64,000 nucleotides of DNA from a bacterium (GTDB taxonomy: Bacteria; Hinthialibacterota; Hinthialibacteria; Hinthialibacterales; Hinthialibacteraceae): the NCBI GenBank assembly GCA_963662285.2, contig CAXXMV010000002.1, forward strand, positions 1,472,001 through 1,536,000. Reading direction: 5' to 3'. Position 1 is the first letter of the stretch, and every line of letters starts with the position of its first letter. Positions 45,476 through 52,359 of this stretch are shown piece by piece. Under the pieces are notes generated by a model, which worked only from the letters and a program-made list of their open reading frames with translations, was not told the origin of the DNA and made no database searches. Position numbers and translations under genes: made by a program.

Positions 45476-46363
45476 ATGACTTTAATGAATGAATCTATCA
45501 AAATGAATCGATCAACTCTTGTTTTCTGTCAATGTAAGAATAGCGATTCAATCCCGGAAGACGTCAAACAAACCGTTTGCAATGCGCTAAACAAGTCGTC
45601 CATTGAATTCAATTCGGTGGATGATCTTTGCGGTTTAGCGGCGAATCAAGATGAATGGTTCGGCAAATTAAAAAACGATCAAAAACATACTATCGTTGCT
45701 TGCACCGAACGCGCAGTCAAATGGTTATTTCATCTGGCAGGATCAGAGATGCCCGAAAAAACAACGGTGCTCAATATGCGCGAGATGAATGCCGATGCGA
45801 TTCTGCAATCATTAAACATAGAAAAACCATGCAGTTCATGCTTACAGGATCAGGCTGAAATCAAACCTGAAATGGATGTTACCTGGATTCCCTGGTTCCC
45901 GGTCATTGATTATGATCGCTGTACACACTGCAAACAGTGCCTGAATTTCTGTCTGTTCCGTGTTTTTGAACTGGATGAAAAAGAGAATGTCATTGTTAGG
46001 AATCCCTCAAATTGCAAAACCAGCTGCCCCGCTTGCGCAAGAGTCTGTCCAGAAAGAGCTATCATATTCCCGAAACATGAATCATCACAAATAAATGGAA
46101 GCGATATTCAACCAAATGAAGTAAAACAAGAAACGAATCTGAATATTCTTCTCCAAGGTGATCTGCAAGATATCTTGCGAAAACGAACTGCCGGGGCCAA
46201 AGGAAATTATCCAACGATGCAAGACATCGCTTTGGCTCAGGAAGAACGGAAAAAATGCGGCTGCGAGCCATCATCTCCCGTTCAGATCGGCCTAATGGGT
46301 AATATGAATCCTGTAAAAAAAGCACCGTCAAGCAATAAAGGAGATATAAACAGCAGTGGTTAA
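45476..46363 (+). CDS. Fe-S protein with 2x[4Fe-4S] ferredoxin domain and Cys-rich N-terminal domain
   Basis: [11 protein letters not shown] and [14 protein letters not shown]-terminal FCQC..DDLC..IVAC. Confidence 0.85.
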
Positions 46364-47876
46364 TTCATCTTTGAAACCTTCAGTCATTCTTGTTGCGGAC
46401 CGGACGCTTTCCAGTAATTATAAAATTCTGTTCGAGGGTATTTTCGCCACCATGCAAACTACGAAAGTCCCTGAACTGGCTATGAAATTGCTTGTATCGC
46501 CAAAAATGCCTACGGACAGCCAAGGCCGCGCAATGGCCGTCCCTTTAGGTTTGCGCCGTTTAGAAGCGGCTCTAATCGAACAAGGCGTGTTACATGAAGA
46601 CGAAGTGGTTTGCACAACTCCAGAAGCGCTAGAATCTCTCCTGGGACCATGGGTGAAAATAGTCGGGATCAGTTCCAGCGACCCACTCGGGCAAGGTATG
46701 AGCAACACTACTACCGACAAATTTTGGAGCGGAGAACTCTACACTAAAGTCTGGACTGCCAAGATGATGGGCGAACTGAAAAAGGCCAAGGAGAAATTCA
46801 ATTTTAAAGTTATTGGCGGCGGAGCTGGAGCATGGCAATGGCAGAACGCTCCGCAAGAATGTCAAAACCAGGGAATAGACCATCTCTTTATTGGCTACGG
46901 TGAATCAAAAGGCGTTAATTTAATCCGCGATCTACTCAATGATAAAGACGCTTCATTCACGACAATAGAAAAAGACAACACTGTCGGCGACATACCTAAA
47001 ATCCGTCATGCTTCACTCCTTGGAATCATCGAACTCTCGCGGGGCTGCGGAAAAGGATGCCGTTTCTGCACGCTCGCCAAACAACCGATGGTGCATTTAC
47101 CTGCCGATACCATCCTCTCCGACATCGAAACCAATGTCTCTCAGGGAGTAACTTCAGTTGTTAGTGGAAGCGAAGATTTTTTCCGCTACGGCGCAACCGG
47201 TTCCAAAATCAATTTTGATGCACTCCATCAGTTATTTACTGAAATGAAGAAAATCAAGGGACTCTCATTCATGCAGATCGACCACGCCAACATTTCGTCG
47301 GTCTTACAAATGAGCGATGACCAACTCAAAGAAATCCGGTCTCTTCTCCAATGGGAGAAAATGAGTGATTACCTGTGGGTGAACATGGGCGTCGAAAGCG
47401 CCAATGGAAATCTGGTCGCGGCCAACGGAGCAGCTAAAATGCATCCCTTCGATCCTTCAAACTGGGAAGACATGGTCAAAGACGCCGTCGCCCGTTTAAG
47501 CAGAACAGGCTACTTTCCCGTTCTCAGCATCATTCTAGGTCTCCCTGGTGAAACAGAAGACGATGTTGAAAGAACGATCCAACTCGTGAAAGAAATCTCG
47601 CGTCAATCTGCGGTAGTATTCCCGGTGTTCTATGAGCCGGTGCTTCCGGGAGAACAACGCTTTACACTGGAAAGCATGACCGCCAAACACCTGAAACTCT
47701 ATGCCATGTGCTATGAAATCAACTTTAAGCATGTTCCTGAAATGTACTGGGACAATCAACGGGCAGGAGGCGTGCCATGGCTCAAACGTGCGCTAGTCCG
47801 ACTTTTGGGTAAAACAGAAATTAACGCGTGGCGCAAGAAGTTTAGACAATTGGAAACGACTCTTGCTGTCCAATAA
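46356..47876 (+). CDS. Radical SAM enzyme with putative B12-binding N-terminal domain
   Basis: [37 protein letters not shown] and IGGGAG Rossmann-like region. Confidence 0.85.
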
Positions 47877-47929
47877 AATAATATGGTGATATAGTCATCT
47901 ATGAATAAGAAAAATTCCGGGATTTATCA

Positions 47930-50483: not shown

Positions 50484-50496
50484 ACAGAGGATTGAC

Positions 50497-52359
50497 ATGA
50501 GTTTCAACATCAATGATCTAACAACAACATTAAACAATACCCGGCAACGCTTACTCCATGAACGCAACCAACAAGGCCATTGGGAAGGCGAACTTTCCAG
50601 CAGCGCCCTCTCAACCGCAACGGCGGTTGTGGCCCTGGCGTTAACCGACTCTAAAAAACACCGGCGCCGCATCCAAAAGGGCTTGGATTGGCTAGTTCAT
50701 AACCAAAACCAGGATGGCGGCTGGGGGGATAGCGCATGCAGTCCAAGCAATATCAGTACAACCACGTTGGCATGGGCCGCTTATGCTGTAGCGGAAAATG
50801 AATCTATCTACCAAAAGACCATAGATGGAGCAGGTCAGTGGATAATTAAGAAGTCAGGCAGTTTAGATATTGAAGCACTCGCGGATACCATCACCGCTTG
50901 CTATGGAGAAGACCGGACTTTCTCTGTACCGATCTTGACGCATTGCGTCTTAAGCGGGAGATTCGGCTCAGACTGTAAAACATGGTCATTAATTAAACCG
51001 CTGCCTTTTGAGTTCGCCCTGGTTCCGTTCTGGTGCTTAAAATGGCTGCGAATCACGGTTGTCAGTTATGCGCTTCCCGCGCTAATCGCTATCGGTCAGG
51101 TAAGGCATCATCACGCTCCTCCCAAGAATCTCCTGGTGCGAATCGTGCGCAATCTAGCTCGCTCCAGAACATTAAAACTCCTAAACCGCATACAGCCCGG
51201 CAGCGGTGGATTTCTGGAAGCAACGCCGCTAACAAGTTTTGTAACCATGTCGCTGGCATCATCCAATGAAAAAGATAATCCCGTCGTCAAAAAAGCCATT
51301 GAGTTTTTAACGCAATCACAAAGAGAAGATGGCAGCTGGCCCATTGATACTAACCTGGCCACATGGGTAACAACTTTAAGCATAAATGCACTTGCGATTA
51401 ACAAAGATTTTCACAATATCCTTCAAGAAAAAGACCGGACGGCCATCACAACCTGGCTATTGATGCAACAAAACCGTGACATTCATCCCTATACCCGCGC
51501 AGGCGCAGGAGGATGGGCCTGGACTGATTTAGCGGGAGGCGTCCCCGACGCTGACGACACGGCAGGAACTCTTATCGCATTACAAAACCTGGGAATTTAT
51601 AATGAAAAAGTGAGAGAATCTATCCAACCAGGCATTCTATGGTTTTTGCAATTGCAAAACAGCGATGGCGGCATCCCGACTTTCTGCCGCGGCTGGGGAA
51701 AACTTCCCTTCGATCAAAGCGCCCCGGATCTAAGCGCTCATTTCATTTCAGCATTAATGATTTGGTCGCAGACAAACAAGTTGCCAGAGCGCCTCAATCT
51801 AAAAATCAAAAAGGCCATCAAGAAAAACCTGCATTACTTAAAAACCGCGCAAAAAGAAAATGGTTCCTGGATACCTCTGTGGTTCGGCAACAACCACGCC
51901 CCAAAAGAAGAGAATCCCGTCTATGGAACAGCGTTGGTAATATCATCTCTTGCAAGCCTGGAAATAATCCCGGACAATGACCTTACCGGGATGATATCAA
52001 GAGGCCATAAATACATCCTGCAAACTCAAAACACGGATCAAGGTTGGGGAGGCGCAAATGATATCCCCTCAAGCATTGAAGAAACCGCCCTGGCGGTCAG
52101 TGCTCTATCTCTAACACTGACCTGGTGTTATAAACATGAAATTGCGCCAGAATGCTTTGATCAGCAAAATATTAAAAATTCAATTCAACAAGGCATAGTT
52201 TGGCTCATCAACAAAACCAACCAAGGCGCAGAGTTCCCCCCATCGCCAATAGGTCTTTACTTCGCCAAACTATGGTATTACGAAAAACTTTACCCCATCA
52301 TCTTCACAACCAGAGCTCTTGAAAGAGCAAACACAATCCTATATCTACTGGATGAATAA
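50497..52359 (+). CDS. Squalene-hopene-cyclase-like class II terpene cyclase
   Basis: QW repeats (QNQDGGW, QREDGSW, QNSDGG, QKENGSW, QNTDQGW) and catalytic PDADDT motif. Confidence 0.9.
   Translation: MSFNINDLTTTLNNTRQRLLHERNQQGHWEGELSSSALSTATAVVALALTDSKKHRRRIQKGLDWLVHNQNQDGGWGDSACSPSNISTTTLAWAAYAVAENESIYQKTIDGAGQWIIKKSGSLDIEALADTITACYGEDRTFSVPILTHCVLSGRFGSDCKTWSLIKPLPFEFALVPFWCLKWLRITVVSYALPALIAIGQVRHHHAPPKNLLVRIVRNLARSRTLKLLNRIQPGSGGFLEATPLTSFVTMSLASSNEKDNPVVKKAIEFLTQSQREDGSWPIDTNLATWVTTLSINALAINKDFHNILQEKDRTAITTWLLMQQNRDIHPYTRAGAGGWAWTDLAGGVPDADDTAGTLIALQNLGIYNEKVRESIQPGILWFLQLQNSDGGIPTFCRGWGKLPFDQSAPDLSAHFISALMIWSQTNKLPERLNLKIKKAIKKNLHYLKTAQKENGSWIPLWFGNNHAPKEENPVYGTALVISSLASLEIIPDNDLTGMISRGHKYILQTQNTDQGWGGANDIPSSIEETALAVSALSLTLTWCYKHEIAPECFDQQNIKNSIQQGIVWLINKTNQGAEFPPSPIGLYFAKLWYYEKLYPIIFTTRALERANTILYLLDE

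Follow-up and report, generated by a model that had tools for sequence, protein, structure and literature searches.

Among the relatives of the squalene-hopene cyclases (SHCs) and oxidosqualene cyclases (OSCs), a group named 'SHC-like' was set apart by Santana-Molina et al. (2020, PMC7306690). In the passages of that paper that deal with the group, its planctomycete members are said to keep the catalytic residues, and the genomic context is taken to suggest a precursor other than squalene. The corresponding passages of McShea et al. (2025, PMC12414744) treat the same group as a clade of unknown function, for which no function or structure has been shown. Here, we describe an operon of five genes that ends with a cyclase of this kind. 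It lies on the plus strand at positions 45476-52359 of a stretch of 64,000 nucleotides (nt) from the bacterial contig CAXXMV010000002.1 (the window, always meant at its full length). In our judgement, the operon probably works as a self-contained unit, and its product would be a non-hopanoid cyclic isoprenoid made without squalene. A separate, squalene-independent pathway is favoured because the cyclase lies outside the SHCs, the genes are conserved together and co-occur, the operon brings its own prenyl synthase, the third in the genome, and most genomes with the five-gene form show no squalene synthase.

The published group consists of divergent SHC homologues outside the SHCs and OSCs, 550-700 amino acids (aa) in length, with catalytic residues kept and a non-squalene context. 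Its hosts and those of the operon family are alike (Planctomycetota, Verrucomicrobiota and Acidobacteriota). The operon cyclase appears to fit this clade of unknown function, as judged by the published description and not by a shared tree. A preliminary description of the locus, made from its sequence, had presented the operon as a candidate for an undescribed biosynthetic system. This is too strong, as the cyclase clade and the non-squalene context are already in print in the passages cited (PMC7306690, PMC12414744). A literature search found no characterisation of the cluster or the pathway. Measured against the passages of both papers, new here are the co-occurrence counts, the two alternative types of radical S-adenosylmethionine (SAM) protein, and the toroid-cyclase fusions; the supplement of PMC7306690 (Fig. 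S10 and text) may already contain the gene neighbourhood. Also new are the lack of squalene/phytoene synthase matches in many carriers and the Ala/Ser positions of the prenyl synthase.

Conservation of the five-gene operon

Domains were called with Pfam and NCBIfam models, and folds were assigned from AlphaFold2 (AF2) models with Foldseek and VIA-align. The operon consists of the following genes:

45476..46363, plus strand: two-domain iron-sulfur (Fe-S) protein, 295 aa; open reading frame (ORF) and Pfam Fer4 families (4Fe-4S dicluster)
46356..47876, plus strand: radical SAM protein of 506 aa, termed type A, with a GTG start; ORF and Pfam Radical_SAM
47930..49618, plus strand: fusion of DUF116 and trans-prenyl diphosphate synthase, 562 aa; Pfam DUF116 and polyprenyl_synt
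49602..50483, plus strand: single alpha/alpha-toroid protein (the toroid), 293 aa; Pfam Prenyltrans
50497..52359, plus strand: SHC-like class II terpenoid cyclase, 620 aa; Pfam SQHop_cyclase_N and SQHop_cyclase_C

Along the gene order, an 8-nt overlap is followed by a 53-nt gap, a 17-nt overlap and a 13-nt gap. Coordinates and Pfam calls agree with the five ORFs, domains and spacings of the preliminary description. A terminator scan found no terminator-like site on the plus strand within 45476-52359. The promoter scan gave fewer sites than shuffled controls and is uninformative.

A tblastn screen of 80 related loci, with the proteins of the operon and those of a second cluster type (type B, see below) as queries, gave the following result:

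all five genes collinear (type A; mostly metagenome-assembled genomes (MAGs) of Phycisphaerae and Pirellulales): 17 loci
five genes complete but differently ordered, accompanied by a GcvH-like gene (type C): 4 loci
type B: 20 loci
synthase, toroid and cyclase (6 of these cut upstream): 7 loci
toroid and cyclase: 4 loci
cyclase alone (16 with less than 5.5 kb upstream): 28 loci

The five genes are one real, widely conserved operon. Their order is not due to chance: 17 of the 80 loci have the complete set in collinear arrangement, and 48 have the trio of synthase, toroid and cyclase. The preliminary description had made its reading depend on such joint conservation, which was thus found. Among the loci with a cyclase alone, the toroid was found elsewhere in the genome in all five cases tested, and the fused synthase stood beside the distant toroid in two of the three regions fetched from such genomes. 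In type B, the 506-aa radical SAM protein is replaced by an unrelated one of about 400 aa and of the SPASM/twitch kind, which matches the HpnH model weakly (40-43 bits, cut-off 225). Further genes usually found in type-B clusters encode a desulfurase resembling IscS, a GTPase resembling CobW, a GcvH-like protein whose lysine is invariant, and a small protein with four cysteines. Of 37 loci in which the toroid gene is next to that of the synthase, 34 have the earliest potential toroid start ahead of the synthase stop; this count may be an overestimate, as the true starts are uncertain. A spacer of 1.36-1.40 kb separates the two genes in seven loci. In one locus of the five-gene type (L018:6672-8078), a 468-aa MFS_3 transporter is encoded between fused synthase and toroid and overlaps both.

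Relationship of the cyclase to squalene-hopene cyclases

Judged by its sequence, the operon cyclase is not a squalene-hopene cyclase. It scores 105.9 bits on the SHC model TIGR01507, for which the cut-off is 431.1, and misses every NCBIfam cut-off, including those of the oxidosqualene cyclase and tetrahymanol synthase models. The second cyclase of the host genome scores 735.9 bits on TIGR01507, and the two proteins are 23% identical. A profile of the operon cyclase family matches the SHC of A. acidocaldarius only at E 6e-36.

The catalytic segments are nevertheless those of a class II cyclase of this superfamily. The DADDT motif claimed in the preliminary description is present, the protein reading VPDADDTAGT at this place:

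51547..51561, plus strand: DxDD(T) proton-donor motif, D351-A-D-D-T355; V349-T355 are invariant in the cyclase family alignment, and the motif aligns to PDVDDTA of 1gsz

Three segments, PDADDT, TAH and YGT, can be aligned to their proton-donor counterparts in 1gsz, the SHC of A. acidocaldarius, and are invariant in the family alignment, and the operon cyclase thus has the DxDDTA motif together with the assisting His and Tyr.

The family is compact and widespread. The 120 best database matches to the cyclase are 48-74% identical to it, relatives occur in at least 580 species genomes, and the mean column identity in an alignment of 25 sequences is 60%. A FastTree phylogeny was built from 78 SHC-like sequences (the operon cyclase and those of 77 of the 80 loci, the other three sequences being cut or short), with the SHC of the same genome as outgroup; its support values were not inspected. 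In this tree, the family is separated from the SHC by a long branch, and the operon cyclase groups with those of loci L009 and L012, in a clade mostly of five-gene clusters. Score (105.9 against 431.1 bits), identity and branch length all agree that the cyclase does not group with true SHCs; grouping with them and making hopene would, according to the preliminary description, have refuted its reading.

Co-occurrence of the genes and supply of squalene

In the host phylum, represented by 23 genomes of at least 90% completeness, the toroid and the cyclase are found in the same five genomes and are adjacent in each, and the other 18 have neither. The second sample comprised 81 genomes of Planctomycetota, which are related to one another, so that the counts are not independent trials: the toroid was found in 19, the cyclase in 20, the fused synthase in 21, the type-A radical SAM protein in three and the type-B one in 16. 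The fused synthase accompanies the cyclase in all 20 genomes, and one partial match makes up the difference. Exactly one type of radical SAM protein is present in 19 of the 20 cyclase genomes and neither type in the remaining one; none of the 81 genomes has both. The 61 Planctomycetota genomes that lack the cyclase contain neither the toroid nor a radical SAM protein of either type. Because 19 of the 20 cyclase genomes have one of the two types, and none of the 61 others, the radical SAM protein is a fixed part of the system, in two alternative forms.

The host genome (7.29 Mb, 8 contigs) has a hopanoid pathway of its own, apart from the operon. A true SHC gene adjoins one for HpnH (386 bits, cut-off 225), and an hpnC-hpnD-hpnE operon, with all three products above the NCBIfam cut-offs, is found on another contig:

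C2:846000-864000 (L093) and C6:1213000-1229000 (L092): canonical hopanoid set outside the window (SHC and HpnH; hpnC-hpnD-hpnE)

A search of the whole genome for the squalene synthase family PF00494 returned only two adjacent genes, on a contig other than that of the window. Pfam scans of the window, which covered ORFs of at least 250 aa throughout and shorter ones within 40-59 kb, found no hpn genes. The statement in the preliminary description that squalene synthase, hpnCDE and hpnH are missing therefore stands for the window and fails for the genome, in which hpnC, hpnD, hpnE, SHC and HpnH are all found elsewhere; the set, for which a genome-wide check had been suggested, is complete. The further claim that the window contains no oxygenase was checked in part, over the same ORFs. 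The operon synthase is the third PF00348 gene of the host genome.

The supply of squalene was also followed across 40 cluster-bearing genomes, for which completeness values are not given and many of which are 5-10 Mb in size. PF00494 was found in 18 of them, with no match in 22. Among the 17 genomes with the five-gene form, there was a match in one only (G006, the closest relative of the window) and none in 16. A true SHC is present in nine of the 40 genomes and absent from 31.

Prenyl synthase fusion and toroid

The 562-aa protein combines DUF116 (110.9 bits, cut-off 25) and polyprenyl_synt (150.4 bits, cut-off 27) in a single chain. Its landmarks are:

48110..48568, plus strand: DUF116 domain (Pfam range 61-213) with seven invariant Cys (C105, C112, C123, C126, C129, C171, C199) in an alignment of 27 sequences
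48857..48871, plus strand: first DDxxD motif, D310-D314 (DDIED); in the alignment of 27 sequences, Ala305-Ser306 at -5/-4 are invariant
49256..49270, plus strand: second DDxxD motif, D443-D447 (DDFSD), read from the sequence; D444 and D447 are invariant

The cysteine core of the N-terminal half includes the CxxCxxC arrangement C123-x2-C126-x2-C129, in agreement with DUF116 (PF01976). Score and the two conserved DDxxD motifs identify the C-terminal half as a trans-prenyl diphosphate synthase (PF00348). In enzymes of this kind, the residues before the first DDxxD motif predict the length of the product. The tyrosine of the geranylgeranyl diphosphate (GGPP) synthase 1wy0 and of the farnesyl diphosphate (FPP) synthase 3p8r was aligned to Ala305. 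Because Ala and Ser stand where 1wy0 and 3p8r have Tyr, the product is predicted to be longer than C20. A fusion of DUF116 with a polyprenyl synthetase has been noted for Pirellula staleyi, and an electron-transfer role of DUF116 has been suggested, in the relevant passage of Makarova et al. (2015, PMC5898192).

The AF2 model of the toroid has a mean pLDDT of 94.6. The closest folds are the beta subunits of protein prenyltransferases (VIA-align Z 26.2-22.9; Foldseek E 2e-8), with geranylgeranyltransferase I (GGTase-I) beta as the best match (Z 26.2, root mean square deviation 2.5 over 263 residues), and a profile match to protein prenyltransferase beta points in the same direction (E 3e-15). 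Class II cyclase domains are more distant (Z 17.8-19.9). The zinc site of the prenyltransferases is not preserved: the ligands D238, C240 and H290 of RabGGTase-beta align to D229, L231 and Y280 of the toroid. The invariant polar residues of the toroid are R43, D48, D85, R94, D229, D277 and E279.

A fusion search found three database proteins of 898-906 aa in which a toroid is joined to an SHC-like cyclase. In one of these natural fusions (P0243), the whole toroid is in frame across the join with the cyclase. Another (P0241) departs from the family over the last part of its toroid and may be a frameshift artefact. A further protein, P0245 (811 aa), combines a toroid domain with a pyridine nucleotide-disulfide oxidoreductase. 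This arrangement and the GcvH-like lysine carrier of type B hint at dithiol/disulfide redox chemistry in some versions of the system.

Fe-S protein and type-A radical SAM protein

The proteins encoded by the first two genes of the operon have the following landmarks:

45518..45820, plus strand: N-terminal 'small' domain of the Fe-S protein, with four Cys (C18, C20, C52, C76) invariant over 37 sequences
45893..46075, plus strand: 2x[4Fe-4S] ferredoxin-type domain of the Fe-S protein, residues ~140-200; Pfam Fer4_6/7/9/10, motifs CxxCxxCxxxC and CxxxCxxCxxxCP
47046..47069, plus strand: CxxxCxxC motif of the radical SAM protein (C231, C235, C238), from an alignment of 16 sequences

The small domain is homologous to stand-alone genes for proteins of 105-176 aa in type-B clusters. 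Because the first ~110 residues of the operon Fe-S protein match the small four-cysteine protein of type B, it is a fusion of two proteins. Pfam gave nothing for the small domain at E<=10, and an Atlas search with it returned hypothetical proteins only, with scores below 0.9. Homologues of the Fe-S protein stand upstream of the cluster in 43 loci.

The only invariant cysteines of the type-A radical SAM protein are those of the CxxxCxxC motif (16 sequences). Its best NCBIfam match is TIGR04013, with 88 bits against a cut-off of 251, and the family has 786 matches at E<=1e-10. The AF2 model (pLDDT 90.2) combines an N-terminal Rossmann-like domain with the radical SAM barrel. According to Foldseek, it resembles the B12 enzymes MgmA, TsrM, CysS, TokK and OxsB, and equally the B12-free MiaB, RimO and AprD4. 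The Pfam B12-binding family (PF02310) matched neither the whole protein (E<=0.01) nor residues 1-225 (E<=10), the N-terminal domain had no match to any Pfam family at E<=10, and some database annotations label its relatives 'B12-binding domain-containing'. What would speak for the use of B12 is the modelled architecture.

Proposed pathway and alternatives

In the pathway that we favour, the synthase half of the 562-aa protein, to go by its family and motifs, would extend a prenyl chain head-to-tail beyond C20. Fold, fusions and co-occurrence suggest that the zinc-free toroid binds this chain and works physically with the cyclase. The conserved catalytic residues make it likely that the SHC-like cyclase protonates a terminal C=C bond via the DxDD aspartate and closes the rings. 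A chain of Fe-S centres, comprising the four-cysteine domain, the 2x[4Fe-4S] domain and the seven-cysteine DUF116, would pass electrons to the radical SAM protein. The latter, an obligatory companion by co-occurrence, would carry out a required radical step on the isoprenoid, before or after cyclisation. We infer the order of the steps, the radical chemistry, the independence of oxygen and the product. What holds of the earlier proposal of a squalene-independent pathway to a cyclic isoprenoid with its own prenyl chain is a separate, non-SHC cyclase, a dedicated synthase and the conservation of the genes; the product belongs to the part that we infer. It may be possible to go further and read the cassette as an anaerobic, squalene-independent route to polycyclic regular (head-to-tail) C30-C40 polyprenoids, in which DUF116 and the radical SAM protein prepare the chain, for example by reductive loss of diphosphate, and the toroid-cyclase pair cyclises it. 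We give this specific version only a slim chance. If it were true, the C30-C40 products would be candidates for the biological origin of some orphan biomarkers in sediments, the extended tricyclic terpanes among them.

Several observations count against a self-contained, squalene-independent cassette. The chain length is read from two residues only, and some GGPP synthases likewise lack bulky residues there. No recognisable catalytic motif was found in the toroid, so that the role given to it is a guess. The desulfurase, GcvH-like protein and GTPase of type B look more like a set for cofactor or cluster maturation than for lipid tailoring, and the MFS transporter in L018 is a hint that the product may be exported, not retained as a membrane lipid. 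The scores of hpnC, hpnD and hpnE indicate that the host genome makes squalene, and its use by the operon cyclase is thus possible. Some of the PF00494 and SHC absences in the 40 genomes may be assembly gaps. The distribution of the system is patchy (5/23 in the host phylum), and in one relative from the host family (G048:C39:29994-32383) the cyclase match contains a TAA codon and the toroid match ends at profile position 228. This copy is either decaying or the result of an assembly error, and we count the stop codon as adverse evidence. Finally, the relevant passages of McShea et al. (PMC12414744) hold that neither function nor structure has been shown for any member of the SHC-like clade.

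The similarity of the toroid to protein prenyltransferase beta subunits (Z 26.2-22.9; profile E 3e-15) invites a different assignment, in which the toroid would be a zinc-free prenyltransferase that places the chain on a non-isoprenoid acceptor. Ring closure in the prenyl part would then fall to the cyclase, in the manner of MstE and the epoxy-polyprenyl cyclases, and the acceptor would be made or modified by the radical SAM and Fe-S proteins. Such a meroterpenoid route would be compatible with the transporter inside L018, and the passages on the subject in PMC12414744 place meroterpenoid cyclases in the clade that is sister to the SHC-like ones. However, the Cys and His zinc ligands are replaced by Leu231 and Tyr280, the clusters share no gene that would provide an acceptor, aromatic or otherwise, and no gene for a prenyltransferase alpha subunit turned up, although no search was aimed at one. 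We regard this route as unlikely. About equally improbable, in our estimate, is that the radical SAM protein, the Fe-S proteins and the IscS-like, GcvH-like and CobW-like proteins of type B build a metal-sulfur cofactor in DUF116, which would then reduce the prenyl diphosphate, for example to a hydrocarbon polyprene for the cyclase. Type B unites a desulfurase, an H-protein-like carrier with an invariant Lys, a GTPase and a radical SAM protein, a combination that resembles what we take to be metallocofactor assembly sets. The seven invariant Cys of DUF116 could hold such a cofactor, and the mutual exclusion of two unrelated radical SAM types across genomes would also fit. The electron-transfer role suggested for DUF116 points the same way (PMC5898192, in the passage mentioned). 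Yet the operon form has no desulfurase, GcvH-like or GTPase genes in the cluster. The GcvH-like profile has a single match in the host genome, 25% identical to the cluster-type protein, and tblastn found no other cluster genes in the 19 kb around it. Moreover, no cofactor or reaction has been assigned to DUF116.

Another explanation, that the cyclase makes an alternative triterpene from squalene supplied by hpnCDE and that the fused synthase only provides FPP, appears the least probable of those considered. It is in line with the presence of hpnC, hpnD and hpnE in the host genome and in that of the closest relative, G006, and squalene is an alkene of the sort that a DxDD motif suits. Against this, there is no PF00494 match in 22 of the 40 cluster genomes, among them 16 of the 17 that have the five-gene form, the chain-length positions of the synthase carry Ala and Ser, and the host possesses a true SHC as well as two further prenyl synthases. 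The squalene-independent cassette remains our preferred reading of the operon.

Surroundings of the operon

The genes on either side do not belong to the conserved block. Upstream of the operon lies a LytTR two-component pair, of which the LytTR protein was matched in two of the 80 related loci and the kinase in one. The sulfatase downstream has a few matches among the 80 loci, at 22-32% identity. Neither the LytTR pair nor the sulfatase is conserved with the five genes. A 118-aa ORF at 52375-52731, which begins 15 nt past the cyclase stop, has no family match and no homologue in the 80 related loci. It contains a signal-peptide-like stretch, may not be a gene, and was left out of the system.

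The G+C content of the interval 46001-52000 of the window is 0.456-0.475, slightly above that of the flanks (0.393-0.432). Acquisition by transfer would be compatible with the G+C content, with the presence in five of 23 genomes of the phylum, and with the nesting of the cyclase among sequences from Planctomycetota MAGs.

Elsewhere in the window, two copies of an insertion sequence (IS) of 1,508 nt, at 14325-15832 and 29384-30891, are 100% identical, inverted, and bracket 13,551 nt. Each copy encodes a 388-aa transposase with an rve integrase domain. The bracketed stretch contains CNNM/CorC, 7TM-HD, PhoH, aspartate-semialdehyde dehydrogenase-like and SulP-cNMP genes. The inverted pair may represent a composite transposon, or else have arisen by recent duplication.

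Significance and comparison with known systems

What the SHC-like cyclases convert, and into what, is posed as an open question in passages of both PMC7306690 and PMC12414744. The answer bears on the evolution of ring-forming lipid chemistry, and on the assignment of cyclic terpane fossils to the organisms that left them. That a radical SAM protein and a toroid belong to the system may help to explain why no function has been demonstrated for the cyclases. The operon described here is the most compact form, with five genes and without the desulfurase, H-protein-like protein and GTPase of the commoner nine-gene form. It is a practical, well-bounded set for heterologous expression, and the separate, complete hopanoid pathway of the host provides an internal control.

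Of the described pathways, the hpn pathway to hopanoids shares with the operon a class II DxDD cyclase, a radical SAM protein (HpnH in the former) and genes for isoprenoid precursors. It differs in that the operon cyclase falls below the SHC cut-off, the complete hpn set is found elsewhere in the genome, and squalene synthase and SHC are both missing from most genomes with the cluster. The sporulenol pathway of Bacillus (heptaprenyl diphosphate synthase, YtpB and SqhC, as outlined in a passage of PMC7306690) is similar in that a dedicated head-to-tail synthase feeds an SHC-family cyclase without squalene. The operon, in contrast, has no YtpB-type enzyme, its cyclase belongs to another clade, and Fe-S, radical SAM and toroid proteins are added. 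The epoxy-polyprenyl cyclases Lon15 and AtoE and the monodomain enzyme MstE, which fall in the sister clade of the SHC-like cyclases according to the passages of PMC12414744, also cyclise regular polyprenyl chains. Their substrates are epoxidised or capped by an aromatic group, whereas the operon has a DxDD motif and no conserved epoxidase or acceptor gene. As for the toroid, the protein prenyltransferase beta subunits (GGTase-I, FTase and RabGGTase) are its best fold match. It differs from them in lacking the Cys and His zinc ligands, in being ~40-140 residues shorter, and in having a cyclase, not an alpha subunit, as its partner.

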